6,863 bases of DNA from a virus (IMGVR_UViG_2740892230_000020); one strand, 5' to 3'; shown: positions 259 to 6,863, counted from the stretch's first letter. A program made the numbers and translations. The notes: generated by a model from the letters alone, not told the origin.

Positions 259-520
259 GCAGTACATCCGGATCATAATCACGACCATCACGCGGTACCG
301 GAATGGTCCCCACAGCGTCATCCACCATCGCCTGCAGAACCGGATGTACCTCATCCACCGTCACATGCTTCTGTAATACCGCCGACAGGGAAGCCAGTTT
401 CTCTTCAAACGCTTGTGCCTGCGCGGCCATCTTCCCCTCAAATGTGCGCTGTAAATCCGCCAGCACCGTGGAGAATTCTTCGCCCAGTGCACGAATAATG
501 GACAGTTCCCGTTCCGTCAT
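259..520 (-). CDS. Hypothetical phage head-module protein, translationally coupled to the portal gene; 3' end lost in the N gap
   Basis: ATG at 520..518 overlaps the portal stop (517..519) in an ATGA arrangement. The open frame runs to the gap and encodes MTERELSIIRALGEEFSTVLADLQRTFEGKMAAQAQAFEEKLASLSAVLQKHVTVDEVHPVLQAMVDDAVGTIPVPRDGRDYDPDVL, which looks helical and acidic. The ORF-track extension to 188 crosses the N run and reads through the inverted HNH flank, so it is not trustworthy. I recognise no family. Confidence 0.45.
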
Positions 521-1881
521 TTTCTCAGTATCCCCCTGAACATCGCTTTCACTGCATCATGCTCTGTTTCACTGATTGCCTTATTACCGTCAGATGCGCC
601 GTCAGGCAGTTGTGCTGAAACTGTTTTCCCGGCCGACGCGAACGGGTCCTCACGGGCATCACGACGGGACAGCGCCTCCAGACTGTAGTTCTGCTGCTGA
701 AGATACAGTGCATCACCGCCGGCAAGGGGCGGCAGGTTCTCACGTTTACGGGCCTCATTGGGCGTGAGAAGCGTATTTTTCACCGATTCACCCAGTGTTT
801 TCATGCGCCGTTCGCTGTCCATTCTCAGCAGCGTGGTGACGTCAAACTCCGTGCTCTCGTTTTCCCCCGTTTCCAGCGCCTCATCCAGTAACAGCTCAAT
901 GGACTCAATCAGCGTCTGCAGACACTGGGAATAATACTGCTGCTCCAGCGCCTCCACGTTGTCACTGGAAGGCGGGTGGCCAACGCCAATCTTGTAGGCC
1001 GGGACACGGAACACCGAACAGACAATTTCAGCCGTCATTTTCAGTTGTTCCACCGTCTGCGCATCCACCGGTGAAAACGTCGTGGGGCTGTATTTTGCCC
1101 CGTTGCTCAGTATGGCCGTCTTCCCGGCATTTTCGCCCGTATATCCGCTGTCCCAGTTCCCCTTCAGTTTTTTCGCGTTTTCTTCCGTAATACTGCCGGG
1201 GACCTCAATCACGCCTGATGGTCGCCCGCCATTTCTGAAAAAATACGTCGAATTTGCCTGAATATGATGCCCCTGCATGGCCGCCAGCCCGGCGGCATAC
1301 ACCGGCGGCAGCCCCACAAGCGGATGAAAAAAACAGTTAAACCGGTCGTGGATCACTTCCCGGGCAGGCACCGTCACCGCCTCCGTGATCCCGCAGTTCC
1401 GGTCCGGCGTGATGCGATAGAACACCTCGCCGTCATCCGCCACCAGAGGTTCAACCCGGTTCCAGTCCAGAATACGCAGTTCTTTGATCTGCCCCCGGGA
1501 GTTACGGATTTTCAGCACCACCGTATTGCCGTGACGCAGTTTGGCGTTCAGCCACAGTTCAAAAAACTGGATACGATTCTGCTGTGCATTGGGACGACGA
1601 CAGAGACGGGCAATATCCCCCTGCCGTTTTTCACGGCGGATCCCCTGTGTATCGGTCTGCATCAGGCGCAGTCGCATTTTGGCGATATCCTGGGATATCA
1701 GCGAAATGCAAGAAAACACCGCGTGAAAGGACAAAACGGTTTCCGGATCGGCTTTCACACCCTGCTGCCAGGCACCGGCAAAAGGCTCAGCCACCGCCTG
1801 AAACAGGGACCGCCAGCCCACTTCTCTTACGTCACGTCCTGATTTCTGGTTTTTTCGGGTTCGCCGCAAAAGGTTCCACAT
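517..1881 (-). CDS. Phage portal protein (HK97-type portal family)
   Basis: 454-aa ORF. The region YFFRNGGRPSGVIEVPGSITEENAKKLKGNWDSGYTGENAGKTAILSNGAKYSPTTFSPVDAQTVEQLKMTAEIVCSVFRVPAYKIG matches the conserved core I recall for HK97-type portals (FF-NG-PSGVL, W...Y.G..NAGK, EI...F.VP). GGAG lies 8 nt upstream of the ATG at 1881. The start is uncertain: an in-frame GTG at codon 21 is possible if the 1827..2048 ORF is real. Confidence 0.85.
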   Translation of the reverse strand: MWNLLRRTRKNQKSGRDVREVGWRSLFQAVAEPFAGAWQQGVKADPETVLSFHAVFSCISLISQDIAKMRLRLMQTDTQGIRREKRQGDIARLCRRPNAQQNRIQFFELWLNAKLRHGNTVVLKIRNSRGQIKELRILDWNRVEPLVADDGEVFYRITPDRNCGITEAVTVPAREVIHDRFNCFFHPLVGLPPVYAAGLAAMQGHHIQANSTYFFRNGGRPSGVIEVPGSITEENAKKLKGNWDSGYTGENAGKTAILSNGAKYSPTTFSPVDAQTVEQLKMTAEIVCSVFRVPAYKIGVGHPPSSDNVEALEQQYYSQCLQTLIESIELLLDEALETGENESTEFDVTTLLRMDSERRMKTLGESVKNTLLTPNEARKRENLPPLAGGDALYLQQQNYSLEALSRRDAREDPFASAGKTVSAQLPDGASDGNKAISETEHDAVKAMFRGILRK

Positions 1882-2092: not shown

Positions 2093-4030
2093 TCAGCCAC
2101 CGGACGCAGTTCCGTAGTTCACACCGGTGATCACCGCCACTGCCGCGGTACGGCGACGACGCCAGTTGATCCAGCGCTCCGCACGGATGGCCACGCTGCC
2201 GGTCTGAAACATGGAGACCAGTTCCACCGGTGACGGTGTGCTGCTGTCGCTGGTCGGTTCAGACTGCATCTCCAGTGACGCTTCACGGGACATATCCACC
2301 GCCACACCGCCGTCATCAGCCAGATAAATATCCGGTGCATTCACCAGTACCAGCTGGTCACCCACATACTGGGAGACAATCACCGGAAGCCCCTGGAAGG
2401 TCCCGCCCAGCAAGGTCATGTCCGGATATTCCTTCTGCCCCAGCGCATTTTTACGCATGGACAGCGCCAGGGCATTCGTGCTGGACATCAGCCAGACCGC
2501 ACCGGTGGGCTGCAGATTTGCCGTCACAAACTGGCCAAACGCGGCCTCGGCATCCGCATCCGGGTTACCGGTTGATGCCGTGCCCTTCACATCATGGGTG
2601 ATGGACGCCGGGGAGACATCCGCCACCGCCGCTTTTTTCGGGTCCACAAAGTCTGTGTCCAGACGCGCCACCACCGCTTCTGCCAGCGCATTACGGACCA
2701 GCGCATCAGCTGCCGGACTGGAAAAACGGATCAGCTCTTCCGTCAGTACCGCAATGGCCGACACCTTCGCATGACTGAAGGTGATGGATTCAAAATCAAA
2801 CTTCGTCAGGGGTCTGGCCTTACCCTCCCCCACCCAGCCGGCAGCACCACCGGACACCTGGGCATGCACGCGGATATTGAACGGCACCTGACGAAGTGCA
2901 GGGATCCCGCCCTGACCAAATCGCCCGATAATGGTCTGCGGACGCAGGTAATCAATAAAGTCCTGCGCATATTCCTGGTATTCAGACAGGCTGCCTGCCC
3001 ACTGCGGGTCCGTGGTGGTCCCTGCCCCCACCGCCGATTTCAGGACATGATGCAGACGGCTGTCATCCGGATACTGACGACGGGCCACTTCCAGGGCTTC
3101 AGAGCGGACACCTTTAGCCGCGGCCAGTGATTTGGCAAAGCGGGCGAAACCAATCCCCTTCTCCAGTTTCTGCTCAACACGGATCACCGGCGCTGAAGCC
3201 ACCGTGGCCACATTCCCGTTACCGGCCTGTTTCACCGGCTGTGCCGTGGCGGCCTTACTGGTTTCCAGTTCACGCAGACGCTTCAGGTGCGCATCCACCT
3301 GACGGATTTCCGCTGCGGTGTTGTCGTAGTGCTCTTCCTCTTCCACATCCAGTGTGCGGCCTTCCTCTGCGGCTTTGTTCATGATCTCCTCAAGGGAGGC
3401 TGCCAGCGCCGCACGCTTGTTTTCAAAACTTTTAATCTGTTCACCAGTATTCATTGCTGACTTTTCCTTATGAAAAGAGGTTATTGACTGTGCCGAAGCG
3501 CCGGCAGAAGATGCGATTTTCACCACCGGTTTCCGGTTGCCGGACGCGGCAGAAAACGGGCGGTCGAAATATTTAATGGTCCGGATGGTGCATTCCGCAT
3601 TCGCGGGCACGGTGACGGCAGACACCTCCATCAGCTCCCAGCGCAGAAAATGCAGTCCGCCTCCGTCCAGATAAGTGTATTCATGGGGCCGGAAGCCCAC
3701 AGAAAGCCCCCTGACCAGCCCGGTCTTAATGGCAGCCCAGGCCTCATCCAGCCGGGCTGCCATCTGGGAGGGCATCCCCGGCTCCGGCTTCACCAGCATT
3801 GCCGTGATTTCCAGCCCTTCCCTGACCCGACGCACCGTACACTGGCCTACAGGGCGGGAATGGTCATGCTGCCAGAGAAACGGGATCGTACTGCCAAACT
3901 CCGCCCCCTCCGGCTCCAGGATGTCACCATCCCGATCCGGAGAAGGCGTTGACGCAATCCCGGTGATCACCCGTTCATCCTCGCTGAAGGATTTCACCGT
4001 CAGCAGGGAACAGGCCCGTTTAAGAGTCAC
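2093..4030 (-). CDS. Prohead protease / scaffold-like coiled coil / major capsid protein fusion (HK97 family)
   Basis: 645-aa ORF. The N-terminal ~165 aa carry HK97-type prohead protease motifs (ITGIASTPSPDRDGDILEPEGAEF; His in WQHDHS; Ser in VRGLSVGFRP, about 50 residues after the His). Residues ~190-280 are a charged helical segment (EQIKSFENKRAALAASLEEIMNKAAEEGRTLDVEEEE...LKRLRELE). The C-terminal ~350 aa resemble the HK97-fold capsid body. The GTG start at 4030 is preceded by a perfect AGGAGG (4036..4041 on +) with a 5-nt spacer. Confidence 0.85.
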   Translation of the reverse strand: MTLKRACSLLTVKSFSEDERVITGIASTPSPDRDGDILEPEGAEFGSTIPFLWQHDHSRPVGQCTVRRVREGLEITAMLVKPEPGMPSQMAARLDEAWAAIKTGLVRGLSVGFRPHEYTYLDGGGLHFLRWELMEVSAVTVPANAECTIRTIKYFDRPFSAASGNRKPVVKIASSAGASAQSITSFHKEKSAMNTGEQIKSFENKRAALAASLEEIMNKAAEEGRTLDVEEEEHYDNTAAEIRQVDAHLKRLRELETSKAATAQPVKQAGNGNVATVASAPVIRVEQKLEKGIGFARFAKSLAAAKGVRSEALEVARRQYPDDSRLHHVLKSAVGAGTTTDPQWAGSLSEYQEYAQDFIDYLRPQTIIGRFGQGGIPALRQVPFNIRVHAQVSGGAAGWVGEGKARPLTKFDFESITFSHAKVSAIAVLTEELIRFSSPAADALVRNALAEAVVARLDTDFVDPKKAAVADVSPASITHDVKGTASTGNPDADAEAAFGQFVTANLQPTGAVWLMSSTNALALSMRKNALGQKEYPDMTLLGGTFQGLPVIVSQYVGDQLVLVNAPDIYLADDGGVAVDMSREASLEMQSEPTSDSSTPSPVELVSMFQTGSVAIRAERWINWRRRRTAAVAVITGVNYGTASGG

Positions 4031-4042
4031 ATCAGCCTCCTG

Positions 4043-4068
4043 AAAATAAAAAAACCGCCGCAGCGGTT
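4043..4068 (-). terminator. Intrinsic-terminator-like hairpin plus U-tract between terL and the capsid gene
   Basis: Minus-strand RNA reads GAACCGCUGCGGCGGUUUUUUUAUUUUC. The stem AACCGC/GCGGUU closes a 4-nt loop and is followed by U7-A-U4, which runs directly into the AGGAGG ribosome-binding site of the capsid gene. The plus strand has no equivalent T-tract, so the element is orientation-specific. Confidence 0.45.
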
Positions 4069-4093
4069 CATGATGGTTACAGGGTGAGCAGGG

Positions 4094-5755
4094 TTATATG
4101 AAAAAAACCTCATACGCTTTCTTTTTCGGTTCCGGATTCAGGGACATCAGGGACACCGCATTGAAGAGCGCCATCAGCGGGTCAATTTTTCCCCGTCCGC
4201 TGGCCTGTTTGGTGATAAGAATGGCGTTACCTTTAGGCTCCACCCGGGCATTGCCAACGCACCAGGCCATCAGTGGCTGACCACCATGCACCAGTACTCC
4301 CTCAGCCAGTTTGCGCTCGGTGGTTTTTATGGCCCCGCCCAGCTTCCAGCCCTGGCTTATCCCCACAACAATTCCGTCGGGGATCCCGGCTTCCGCCAGT
4401 GAATCCAGAATCTGCCCCACACCTGACGGGTCAATACCGATATGCTCCAGTAACTCAGCCTCATGAATACGACGCACATACTCCGCCACTTCCGCCGTGT
4501 CATCCCCGACCCGACGGACAATCGTCATGTCTCCACAGGCCACAAAATCCTGAAAACGGGATGCCTCACTCTTCCGTCTGACCACCGCGGTTTCATGCGC
4601 CCAGGCATGGCCCCAGCCCAGCCATTCGCGGGTTTCCCTGTCACGGCCAATCACGTACATTCCCAGCAGATCATCCAGGCCCCCGCCGTCAATCCCCACC
4701 GTCACCACATCAGCGCGCTGCAGGATATCGTCCAGGCTGACGCGCCTGCCCTGCTGCTCCCAGAAATCCGCACCCGCCCAGCGGTCAGAACGCAGGGCAA
4801 GACCAATTTCCACATTGGCATGTTTTGACATGAAGCCACGAAATGCTTCCTCACCAGCCTCCCGGGCTTTACGGTACTCCCGGTACAGAAAAGCCTCATC
4901 CACCGAATAACCGAGATTCGGGTTAACCATGGCGAGGTTTTCCATCAGCAGGTGAGCCCCGCTTTCCACCATTTCAGGAGGATGCTCAAAAATCACCGGC
5001 AGAAAGTGCGGATCATGAATTTTGCCGTCACGGACATCCCGGGCATACTGCAGTTTCTGTCTGAACACCCCGGCGGGCGGTTCATTCGACTGGGTGGTCG
5101 TATACACCACAAACCCTTCCGGACGGGAGGCAAGCCCGCCGATGGCTTCACGTAGCATGTCTTCCGCCTTGTACTGCTTGCCAAACAGCCACAGTTCATC
5201 AATCAGTGTCCCCACGGACTTGATACCGGACACCGTATTCGGATCGGCTGCCACCACCTTCAGGGTGGTGTCCGTCACCCGATGGGTGATGGTCCGGATA
5301 TGTGTCTGCACCTGACAGAGGTCATCCAGATCATCGTCCCGTCGTACCATATCCCTGGCAGGGTTGAAGGCGTTAGCCGCCACCTCCACGGTCGGGGCCA
5401 GAATGGTGTAGCCCGCCGCCTGCCGCCAGTTCAGTAACAGCGCCGTCATCATGATCCCCGCAGCCAGCGTGGACTTACTGTTTTTCTTGGGGATAAGGAT
5501 AAACACTTCCTTGATATGGCGAACACCGGTCTGCGCATCGTAGGAGCCAAACAGGGCCGCCACCAGGTCAAACACCCACGGTGCACAGGACTCCCCGAAT
5601 GTCGGGCTACCCGGTGCATCCACAATTCGCAGTTGTTTAAAAATCGCCAGTGCATGTGCAGCCTGGTCCGGATAAATCGGAGCCGGAATAATCGACAGCC
5701 CCTTTTTCAGGCGCTCTGCCCAGTCCGGGCAGGCCGTGCTCCACACAGGTATCAT
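4094..5755 (-). CDS. terL: Terminase large subunit (ATPase/nuclease)
   Basis: 553-aa ORF. Walker-A-like motif in FILIPKKNSKSTLAAGIMMTALL, C-terminal nuclease-domain-like VTVGIDGGGLDDLLGMYVIGRD, and length and position typical of HK97-type large terminases. The ATG at 5755 overlaps the terS stop (ATGA) and is preceded by GAGGG with a 6-nt spacer. Confidence 0.9.
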   Translation of the reverse strand: MIPVWSTACPDWAERLKKGLSIIPAPIYPDQAAHALAIFKQLRIVDAPGSPTFGESCAPWVFDLVAALFGSYDAQTGVRHIKEVFILIPKKNSKSTLAAGIMMTALLLNWRQAAGYTILAPTVEVAANAFNPARDMVRRDDDLDDLCQVQTHIRTITHRVTDTTLKVVAADPNTVSGIKSVGTLIDELWLFGKQYKAEDMLREAIGGLASRPEGFVVYTTTQSNEPPAGVFRQKLQYARDVRDGKIHDPHFLPVIFEHPPEMVESGAHLLMENLAMVNPNLGYSVDEAFLYREYRKAREAGEEAFRGFMSKHANVEIGLALRSDRWAGADFWEQQGRRVSLDDILQRADVVTVGIDGGGLDDLLGMYVIGRDRETREWLGWGHAWAHETAVVRRKSEASRFQDFVACGDMTIVRRVGDDTAEVAEYVRRIHEAELLEHIGIDPSGVGQILDSLAEAGIPDGIVVGISQGWKLGGAIKTTERKLAEGVLVHGGQPLMAWCVGNARVEPKGNAILITKQASGRGKIDPLMALFNAVSLMSLNPEPKKKAYEVFFI

Positions 5756-6315
5756 CCGTTGCCCTCATTATCATTATTCACCACCAGGCGGGGTGGTGGT
5801 GGCACCGCAAAACGGTTAGCCGCTTTTTTCGCCGCGTCACCTTTTGCCGATTTTTTACCGGCATCCCCTTTTTTATGGTGCGTGAACTGCGCCAGCTTAT
5901 AAGCCGCATCCAGCGCCAGCCTGGGGTCGGTATTAATGTTCTCCACCAGAAGACGCCCCATCGCTTTCACCGGATCGGGAAGACCATCCTCCATATATTC
6001 AATACCAGGAGACATCACCGCGGACGGTGGCATCTCCGGATTGTTTTCGTCCGGCTGTGGTATTGCAGCCGCCTCACGGCGACGGGGTTTATCCTCCTGC
6101 TCTGATTTTTTCTGCCGGTAAACAGGAACCTCATCCACCTCCACCGTCTCGCATTGTTTACGGGCTATAAACGCAAGCACCTCCGGATCTTTTGCCAGCT
6201 GCGAGCCTTTAACCCTGGCGGTCTTCGCCGAATAACCAGCGGCAATGGCTGACGCTGTTTTGTTTTTCCCGGACATGAGCGCCAGCGCAAATTTTCGTTT
6301 TTGCGTTGTCAGCAC
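5752..6315 (-). CDS. terS: Terminase small subunit
   Basis: 187-aa ORF. The N-terminus LTTQKRKFALALMSGKNKTASAIAAGYSAKTARVKGSQLAKDPEVLAFI fits the helix-turn-helix signature of small terminases (LT-KQ..F...Y...N.T.AA..AGYS.KTA...G..LL..P.V), followed by a Lys-rich C-terminus. GTG start at 6315 is preceded by GGGAGGAGG. It sits immediately upstream of, and is translationally coupled to, terL. Confidence 0.75.
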   Translation of the reverse strand: MLTTQKRKFALALMSGKNKTASAIAAGYSAKTARVKGSQLAKDPEVLAFIARKQCETVEVDEVPVYRQKKSEQEDKPRRREAAAIPQPDENNPEMPPSAVMSPGIEYMEDGLPDPVKAMGRLLVENINTDPRLALDAAYKLAQFTHHKKGDAGKKSAKGDAAKKAANRFAVPPPPRLVVNNDNEGNG

Positions 6316-6385: not shown

Positions 6386-6513
6386 GCAAATGTTAACTGC
6401 TGCCTGGTTAACATTTGCTGAAAAAGCCAGTTAACATTTTTTCCGCACAACAAACTGAATAATAAAGATAAAAACCGCAAAAATGCCCGGACAGCCAGTT
6501 AACATGTTAACTG
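6386..6513. promoter_or_regulatory. Array of GTTAAC-core palindromic sites (candidate terS-binding cosB-like sites or operator array)
   Basis: Five GTTAAC hexamers at 6392, 6407, 6430, 6498 and 6506, all within extended half-sites C(A/T)GTTAACAT. 6386..6418 is a 12-bp inverted repeat (gcaaatgttaac / gttaacatttgc) around a 9-bp spacer. 6496..6513 is a perfect 18-bp palindrome (cagttaacatgttaactg). An A/T-rich tract (6448..6485) lies between the sites. Confidence 0.5.
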
Positions 6514-6526
6514 CCCTGAAACGGGA

Positions 6527-6771
6527 ATTTTTTCTCTGCGTGAGAGGGGGGGCGGTGTCCGGAGCGATCGTTTTTTACGCCGAATGATACCCCCCCGGTC
6601 GGGTTACAGTCCGATGATGTCGTCCGCTCTGCCACTACCTCCGGACACCTCCGGCAGCGTCGGGTCCGGCATACCACTCGCCGTTTCACTGACTGACTTC
6701 TGGCGATGGCATTCGGTACAGAGCGTCCAGAGATTCGTCTCCTCATTACCACCACCGAACTGAAGTGCAAT
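6527..6771. repeat. Right arm of the inverted repeat (partner of 1..248)
   Basis: See left arm. Homology presumably continues beyond 6771 into the rest of HNH, but the left copy is cut by the window start. Confidence 0.8.
6546..6596. other. G7...C7 homopolymer dyad immediately 3' of HNH (candidate cos nicking region)
   Basis: A G7 run (6546..6552) and a C7 run (6590..6596) flank a ~37-bp spacer, directly downstream of the HNH stop at 6604. The same arrangement recurs in the inverted copy at 177..229 with a 9-nt run. Its position between HNH and terS is where cos lies in HK97-like phages. Confidence 0.3.
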
Positions 6772-6863
6772 GCGGTGATCGAGTTCACTGTCACAAAGGT
6801 CAACCACACGCCCACAGAGACAGCACTGTCCGGCATCCCTCAGCCAGATACGACGCTTGAGGG
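6604..6863 (-). CDS. HNH endonuclease (5' partial; start beyond window end)
   Basis: The minus-strand frame is open from the window edge: LKRRIWLRDAGQCCLCGRVVDLCDSELDHRIALQFGGGNEETNLWTLCTECHRQKSVSETASGMPDPTLPEVSGGSGRADDIIGL, with stop at 6604. It shows the full HNH zinc-finger signature (C-x2-C...DH...N...C-x2-C-H). The ORF-track entry 6604..6807 is the same frame started at an internal GTG. Confidence 0.85.
   Translation of the reverse strand, partial: LKRRIWLRDAGQCCLCGRVVDLCDSELDHRIALQFGGGNEETNLWTLCTECHRQKSVSETASGMPDPTLPEVSGGSGRADDIIGL

Follow-up and report, generated by a model that had tools for sequence, protein, structure and literature searches.

We propose that the dense cluster of short repeats lying between the genes of an HNH endonuclease and the small terminase subunit (terS) in a 6863-bp stretch of viral DNA, the whole of which we call the window, is a recognition region of the cosB type within the cos site used by long-tailed Stx-converting lambdoid phages, and we regard this reading as likely. 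The putative TerS recognition sites lie on the terS side of a mapped genome end, hold a fixed position, change together with the HTH domain of TerS and are kept in a satellite that has no terS, and these observations favour the cosB-like role offered in the initial annotation. No description of the sites was found in the searchable literature, including that on cosB and on HNH phages, and the cohesive-end sequence occurs there in one phage paper only; what is new here is the recognition sites, the cohesive-end sequence alone having been reported previously for the region.

The window DNA is 98-99% identical to the packaging/head module of the phages Stx2a_WGPS2, BP-4795, 2851, 1717 and YYZ-2008. 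Judged by its sequence, it comprises the HNH-terS-terL-head module found in long-tailed Stx-converting lambdoid phages, and an HNH endonuclease is annotated in the matching genomes as well. The features are listed below, where positions preceded by a plus sign are counted from the left end of the packaged genome toward terS (6545 minus the window coordinate).

517-1881, minus strand: portal gene.
2093-4030, minus strand: prohead protease/major capsid fusion gene.
4094-5755, minus strand: terL, with ATPase and nuclease domains (Pfam TerL_ATPase, TerL_nuclease).
5752-6315, minus strand: terS, 187 aa, GTG start with a GGAGGAGG Shine-Dalgarno sequence upstream (Pfam Terminase_2, E = 1.5e-8, residues 2-57).
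6386-6418: putative half-sites C and D as a tail-to-tail inverted repeat with a 9-nt spacer (CAGGCAGCA).
6390-6397 (+148 to +155), minus from the left end: putative half-site D, ATGTTAAC.
6407-6414 (+131 to +138), plus from the left end: putative half-site C, ATGTTAAC.
6428-6437 (+108 to +115), minus in the window and plus from the left end: putative distal half-site B, ATGTTAACTG read toward terS.
6438-6495: A/T-rich tract separating the proximal from the distal sites, 27-35% GC.
6448-6460 (+85 to +97), minus strand: IHF-like element ATTCAGTTTGTTG within the A/T-rich tract.
6496-6513: putative proximal cosB element, the perfect 18-bp palindrome CAGTTAACATGTTAACTG, in which two ATGTTAAC half-sites stand head to head.
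+40 to +47, plus from the left end: putative half-site A2, ATGTTAAC.
+34 to +41, minus from the left end: putative half-site A1, ATGTTAAC.
6519-6538 (+7 to +26), minus strand: conserved block CAGAGAAAAAATTCCCGTT between cosN and the palindrome, kept in all relatives.
6545-6554, minus strand: cosN, the 10-nt 3' cohesive-end sequence CGCCCCCCCT (PhageTerm, Lys8385Vzw; PMC7946995).
6591-6597, minus strand: G7 run, read along the genes, on the upstream side of the cut at a distance of 46-52 nt, present in 20/20 distant relatives and in satellites.
6604-6863, minus strand: 3' part of the HNH endonuclease gene, running off the window end (Pfam HNH, E = 1e-6).

Two further features of the window stand apart from the array. 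The protease-capsid fusion is a single 645-aa ORF (Peptidase_S78 and Phage_capsid); a fused prohead protease and major capsid protein has been reported for Gifsy-2-type heads (PMC12315714). At the other end of the window, ten N at 249-258 mark a scaffold join, and positions 1-248 hold a second, inverted copy of the HNH 3' end and cosN, about 90% similar, which stops at +18 from the cut, just short of where the array would begin. Positions 1-258 look like an assembly join of two paralogous prophage copies and not like a biological inverted repeat.

The 6863-bp window contains six copies of the core GTTAAC against an expectation of 0.73, and none of 200 shuffles reached six; five of the six are clustered within 6392-6511 (starts at 6392, 6407, 6430, 6498 and 6506). 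The organisation is therefore beyond chance, as had been claimed from the first reading of the sequence. Five copies of a longer half-site had also been counted. Four stand as exact copies of the 10-mer CAGTTAACAT, at 6390-6399 (minus), 6428-6437 (plus), 6496-6505 (plus) and 6504-6513 (minus); the fifth, at 6405-6414 (TGGTTAACAT), agrees with the 8-bp core GTTAACAT only and not with C[AT]GTTAACAT. The initial annotation was right about the two inverted pairs, both of which are exact (the one at 6386-6418 has 12-nt arms, 6386-6397 and 6407-6418, that are 100% complementary with 9 nt between them), about the A/T-rich tract that separates them (27-35% GC in 40-bp windows) and about the location between HNH and terS, both flanking genes being on the minus strand. 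Its suggestion of a dimeric protein is too simple, because the two inverted pairs are opposite in polarity, 6496-6513 being head-to-head and 6386-6418 tail-to-tail; a TerS ring, with several HTH domains that bind independently, would suit this arrangement better than a single dimer. The centre-to-centre spacings of the half-sites are 6, 68, 23 and 17 bp, so helical phasing is not clean, and similarity among the repeat copies stops after 8-13 bp. Counted from the left end, the array spans +34 to +155 and terS starts at +230.

The position of the array relative to the packaged genome comes from phage Lys8385Vzw, whose cohesive ends were mapped by PhageTerm as the 10-nt 3' end CGCCCCCCCT (PMC7946995). 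Its TerS is 99.5% identical to that of the window, the gene lying at 230-790 of the record (MT225100), and the record ends in ...GCCCCCCCT (in a longer reading ...GGACACCGCCCCCCCT) and begins with CTCACGCAGAG (in a longer reading CTCACGCAGAGAAAAAATTCCCG). The record ends taken with the published ends place the overhang at window 6545-6554; the first base of the left end of the packaged genome is window 6544, running downward, and the array therefore falls between cosN and terS, which is the position of cosB. An IMG/VR contig, L070, begins 1 nt before the inferred cut and gives anecdotal support for the end position. We set aside the start of the phi330 record as evidence of a genome end, since that record, unlike that of Lys8385Vzw, is not cut at cos.

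Several elements around the cut are shared more widely than the array. The CAGAGAAAAAATTCCCGTT block is kept even in satellites with a different TerS HTH and different repeats, and is probably part of the cleavage-site context recognised by TerL/HNH. The A-tract at +11 to +17 is conserved, also in satellites with a different TerS HTH, and does not track TerS class; it could be a TerS site or contribute to one. In HK97 (L085, 684-691) a run of eight G residues stands 44-51 nt upstream of the cos cut, so that a run of seven or eight G residues 44-52 nt upstream of the cut is common to the whole window family and to HK97, whose TerS is unrelated. This G-run may be common to HNH-dependent cos sites, with a part for instance in termination or in HNH/TerL contact. 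Within the window family it is complementary to the C-run of cosN.

In many distant relatives (L096 and others) GTAAACAT is found again, as a direct repeat, some 26-34 nt upstream of cosN, which gives them a half-site on both sides of the cut and recalls R4/cosQ of lambda; the window equivalent, at 6570-6578, is degenerate (GTAAAAAAC). In the PPompW prophages (L083; LC567822.1, PPompW_132418, 2775-4233) the IS110-family element ISEc20 sits in the G/C-run just upstream of cosN, at about window 6593. These prophages are without the HNH and lysis genes, tRNAs and Q follow directly, and the cos-terS side, array included, is intact.

The TerS of the window has an N-terminal HTH DNA-binding domain (residues 1-57, window 6145-6315). 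AlphaFold2 gives pLDDT values above 90 for residues 1-50, with helices at 4-14, 19-25, 33-41 and 44-56. The best Foldseek match to the model is the DNA-binding domain of the SF6 small terminase (4zc3, TM 0.84, rmsd 1.6 Å over 56 columns), followed by a second SF6 structure (2cmp, TM 0.81); a PDB sequence search with TerS returned SF6-type DNA-binding domains only, as weak matches, and HK97 TerS was not among them. On the predicted structure the N-terminal domain is an SF6-type HTH, and we propose residues 33-41 (ARVKGSQLA) as the recognition helix. The window TerS is accordingly not taken as a homologue of HK97 gp1, since it belongs to Terminase_2 and has SF6 domains as its best Foldseek matches.

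The motif is confined to the HNH-terS junction, as the initial reading required of a specific site. In the 50-kb genome of Lys8385Vzw five of the six ATGTTAAC copies fall within the first 155 bp, as do five of the 17 copies of GTTAAC, the others occurring at background level, and a similar density elsewhere in that genome, which the initial annotation had named as a refutation, was not seen. The array is also common. A 245-bp segment holding it together with cosN is present in 1283 of 5426 complete Escherichia coli genomes, at up to seven places in each. Within the lineage, for which 61 haplotypes were taken from 77 IMG/VR loci, the array hardly varies at all, and divergence is too low for footprinting.

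More diverged comparisons were made with the contexts of TerS variants that are 67-88% identical to the window TerS. In four diverged E. coli lineages the half-sites keep their positions and orientations to within 2 bp. Half-site B is found at +106 to +108 in L178, L181, L169/L171 and the satellite L185. L178 and L181, in which TerL is 88% and 85% identical to that of the window, have GTTAAC half-sites at matching positions with one extra copy each, and they agree with the window at 95% and 97% of motif positions, against 68% and 61% in the rest of the region. Within the A/T-rich tract, four phage lineages keep ATTCAKWTTGTTR at +84/+85 and a satellite has it at +74, with one or two mismatches to the IHF consensus WATCAANNNNTTR; a search of the window region with that consensus, allowing at most one mismatch, gave no match. 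The tract at 6438-6495 may be a bend.

The repeats change with the TerS HTH. In the lineage L169-171, which we place in a second class, TerL is 97% identical to that of the window and the layout of the array matches, including the 9-nt spacer of the distal pair (GTTTACagggcagcgGTAAAC), yet all five cores are altered to GTTTAY (TATAAACATGTTTATA, ATGTTTAT, ATGTTTACagggcagcgGTAAACAT). TerS of this lineage differs by K19R, A25E, A30E, T32S and V35C, and the class-defining substitutions are at residue 25 (the end of helix 2), residues 30 and 32 (the turn and N-cap) and residue 35 (in the putative recognition helix). A second lineage with the KSARCKGSQ helix, L180, also has GTTTAY cores. Three helix/motif classes (GTTAAC, GTTTAY and GTTACAC) were distinguished across 117 loci, and the two phage classes compare as follows.

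TerS helix KTARVKGSQ/R, 87 loci in four lineages: five or six GTTAAC in 85/87, three and four in the other two; GTTTAY absent in 86/87, with a single GTTTAY in one locus.
TerS helix KSARCKGSQ, four loci in two lineages: five GTTTAY (three in a truncated contig), no GTTAAC.

The sample of the co-variation amounts to two class II lineages and two lineages of TerS-encoding satellites, and linkage could account for part of the co-variation through co-inheritance, cosB being at most 230 bp from the sequence for the TerS N-terminus. Repeats of 8 bp are too short to be homogenised by gene conversion, and that all five have switched together within a shared layout suggests that a single binding protein exerted the selection. 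We also note that L181 (GCA_902840805.1, terS at 507-1049) combines a window-type HTH and a GTTAAC array with a C-terminal tail, ...PPKFTRH, otherwise seen in satellite TerS proteins, which suggests recombination between phage and satellite terS genes.

Satellites provide the third motif class and a separate line of evidence. P0059 and P0053 are TerS variants with a different HTH (helix ...KTARVKGWQL...) that are located outside phages. The P0059 element, at least about 8.5 kb long, encodes an integrase, small ORFs, an AAA_25 replicase, TerS and a 307-aa capsid-like protein and has a cos, while TerL and HNH are absent; an AlpA gene is adjacent to the P0053 terS. These elements have the G-run and a homologous cosN (CGCCCCCCGT/CTCAT and CGCGCCCCCT/CTCAT, the stroke marking the junction), followed by GTTACAC repeats from +33. 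One element has two of them, and the other has four exact GTTACAC and two GTTACAT variants together with a phage-like A/T-rich tract. L184 (GCA_012987925.1, contig AATOBA010000003.1, 3446-11944; compare L172-174 and L182-183) is a small satellite-like element that fits this description: it encodes an integrase, DUF4222, an AAA_25 replicase, a TerS of its own with a different HTH and the 307-aa capsid-like protein, lacks TerL and HNH, and combines the G-run and cosN of the Stx-type phages with GTTACAC repeats from +33.

A third, related satellite (L185/L186) is found in Ec-042-T20-MAC between cspD and clpS (NZ_CP086526.1, 2992400-3012000). It is about 9.5 kb long and encodes an integrase, an Icd-like protein, a RepA helicase and a protease/capsid fusion; terS, terL and hnh are missing. 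At its clpS-proximal end it has cosN and a complete GTTAAC array at +34, +40, +108, +132 and +149, in which the motif is identical to the window at 38/38 positions and the rest at 78/117 (67%), with no gene downstream; the 9-nt spacer and orientation of the distal pair are kept too. A complete array that persists without any following gene would be kept as a cis-acting signal and not as the regulatory region of terS. From this conservation we infer that the array is a packaging signal that works in cis whether or not a gene follows it, and the satellite apparently borrows the packaging signal of its helper.

A scan by TerS alignment, with one genome per species, gave 20 full-length relatives, all in prophages, from Kluyvera, Phytobacter, Serratia, Atlantibacter, Kosakonia, Rouxiella, Enterobacter, Citrobacter, Erwinia, Pantoea, Buttiauxella and other genera. 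Their TerS proteins are 33-49% identical overall, with the N-terminal 57 residues highly conserved. All 20 have the run of seven or eight G residues, about 45 nt, and then CGC(G)CCCCCT/CTCACGCACAGAAAAAATTCCCCTCTGGAGGGTGTAAAC-ATG-TTA-ACA, so that an imperfect palindrome, GTAAACATGTTAAC, lies at +34 to +47 over the terS start codon (ATG TTA ACA), terS starting at +40 with GGAGGG as Shine-Dalgarno sequence. Salmonella phage FSL SP-016 has this arrangement as well. L105 has the mirror-image GTTAACgtGTTTAC, which changes Leu2 to Phe, and L106 and L107 have GTTAACgtGTTAAC. The window lineage has its terS start (GTG CTG ACA) displaced downstream by 190 bp, and the palindrome, now non-coding and perfect, is still at +34 to +47. 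The proximal position holds a half-site in every relative examined (20 distant relatives, four E. coli lineages and three satellite types) while the start of terS moves from +40 in the distant genera to +223 to +242 in the E. coli lineages, which indicates that the palindrome is positioned relative to cosN and not to terS. The distal half-sites are absent from the distant relatives and may be dispensable.

The initial annotation had put forward an operator array as the other candidate, that is, repeats that bind a transcriptional regulator, or an autoregulating TerS, and control the packaging operon. Palindromic repeats ahead of the first packaging gene do resemble operators, and the site shares bases with the terS start codon and Shine-Dalgarno sequence in the distant relatives, where autoregulation by a roadblock would be possible. 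The motifs even form an antisense promoter-like match (TTAACA-18-TAACAT, 6408-6437, plus strand). This match, directed toward HNH and probably incidental, was the only one in a promoter search of the array region, which agrees with the earlier failure to find a sigma-70 -35/-10 pair in the gene direction; a terminator was not found there either. In lambdoid phages late transcription comes from upstream and depends on the Q antiterminator, Q is annotated in the Lys8385Vzw record as well as in the PPompW prophages, and the late genes of these phages are transcribed from far upstream. Since the array also stays intact in a satellite with no gene behind it and keeps its distance to cosN while that to terS changes, we consider a role as operator unlikely. 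Two other candidates for the region were tried and rejected: a hydrophobic 24-codon ORF that starts at the ATG of the palindrome is not conserved, L178 having a stop after five codons, and a structured RNA element finds no Rfam match at E <= 1 and has a fold z-score of -1.4.

If the array is a packaging site, its binder might still be the HNH protein, TerL or a host DNA-binding protein in place of TerS. HNH and TerL must act at cos, HNH is encoded immediately upstream, and A/T-rich cores flanking a bendable tract are often seen in sites of nucleoid proteins. The motif class, however, switches where TerL is 97% identical and stays the same where it is 85-88% identical, and HNH is about 80-85% identical to that of the window in both motif classes; the class therefore follows TerS and is independent of the divergence of TerL and HNH, which we reject as binding partners. 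A satellite with TerS and without TerL and HNH has its own type of repeat, and a host protein would leave the lineage-specific switch of all five cores inside one host species unexplained. Taken together, these points make a binder other than TerS very unlikely. The repeats might, on the other hand, bind nothing and be relics, duplications of the ancestral start region of terS (ATG TTA AC...). The core ATGTTAAC does equal that start, which reads Met-Leu-Thr, and the 180-bp spacer is specific to the lineage. Against this, the copies are alike over 8-13 bp only, their positions are kept while the spacers diverge, all copies switch together in class II, and the reading frame from the palindrome ATG has not been preserved. 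We find a non-functional relic barely credible.

We return to the cosB-type reading and suggest how such a site might work. The terminase cuts cosN (6545-6554) and leaves 10-nt 3' overhangs, a step shown in published work, and the terS-adjacent end would be the left end and be packaged first, as gene order and the genome ends indicate. The co-variation suggests that the SF6-type HTHs of an oligomeric TerS bind the ATGTTAAC sites at +34/+40, +108, +131 and +148, with two HTH domains on the proximal palindrome and further domains on the distal sites. The A/T-rich tract with its IHF-like element might bring the proximal and distal sites to one TerS assembly, although we put this forward only weakly. 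By analogy with lambda and HK97, the bound TerS would then place TerL and HNH on cosN, some 30-40 bp away. The proximal palindrome, the sole site in the other genera, would be the ancestral core site, and the three distal sites with the 180-bp spacer an elaboration of the E. coli lineage with a presumed accessory role.

The resemblance to cosB of lambda is one of layout. In both systems the repeats lie between cosN and the small-terminase gene, which starts at about +190 in lambda and at +230 here; they are short, mixed in orientation and split by an A/T-rich bendable segment (R3-I1-R2-R1 in lambda, with gpNu1 and an IHF bend); and specificity is paired with the N-terminal HTH of TerS, as between lambda and phage 21, with satellites that exploit both. 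Lambda differs in having 12-nt 5' overhangs and no HNH, in contrast to the 10-nt 3' overhangs and HNH found here. Its gpNu1 is a winged-helix protein of another family, whereas the TerS here is of the Terminase_2, SF6 type; the repeats here are 8-bp ATGTTAAC cores, the proximal site is a perfect palindrome, and a role for IHF is only suggested.

HK97 likewise depends on an HNH protein for cos packaging, leaves 10-nt 3' overhangs, carries a G-run some 45 nt upstream of its cut and has its TerS site, here a putative one, between the cut and terS. In HK97 that site is at +15 to +29 and terS begins at +50 (PMC11331095), close to the +40 of the distant relatives. Its ends were rejected as sequence homologues, since only the architecture is common (the G-run and the short distance from cos to terS), and its TerS, which has no detectable similarity to that of the window, threads DNA through a tunnel and uses a single 15-bp A-tract site, whereas here we have an external HTH and five candidate ATGTTAAC cores over 120 bp. 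The pac system of SPP1 and SF6 (G1P) has the TerS DNA-binding fold in common with the window (4zc3, TM 0.84), as well as repeated boxes and a ring oligomer, but it is a headful system with no defined cohesive ends and no HNH, whereas that of the window is a cos system with mapped ends.

Satellite precedents are the SaPI TerS, SaPIbov5, which uses the cos of its helper, and Rpp of the E. coli PICI, and both redirection strategies are seen around the window cos: L185/L186 carry the helper cos with the full array, while L172-174 and L182-184 have their own TerS and repeats by the shared cosN. The satellites described here differ from SaPI and PICI in being E. coli integrase/RepA elements aimed at HNH-dependent Stx-type phages, and their mobilisation is a prediction.

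These comparisons lead us to a wider proposal, to which we would give even chances. The array and the N-terminal HTH of TerS may form an exchangeable cassette for packaging specificity that sits on a common cleavage core (G-run, cosN and A-tract). There would be at least two classes in Stx-type phages, GTTAAC and GTTTAY, and E. coli integrase/RepA satellites would exploit the core either by copying the array of the helper or by bringing their own TerS with GTTACAC.

Many Stx1, Stx2a and Stx2c phages have the cos region in their packaging module, and the exact genome ends help to annotate and assemble the repetitive lambdoid prophages of enterohaemorrhagic E. coli. The putative recognition sites offer a mutable target for studying how HNH-dependent cos phages with an SF6-type TerS choose their DNA, and they would predict which prophages and satellites can cross-package. 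We see the associated satellites as the most promising lead. If our proposal is true, they could compete with, or ride on, the packaging of Stx phages and so affect the spread of the toxin genes.
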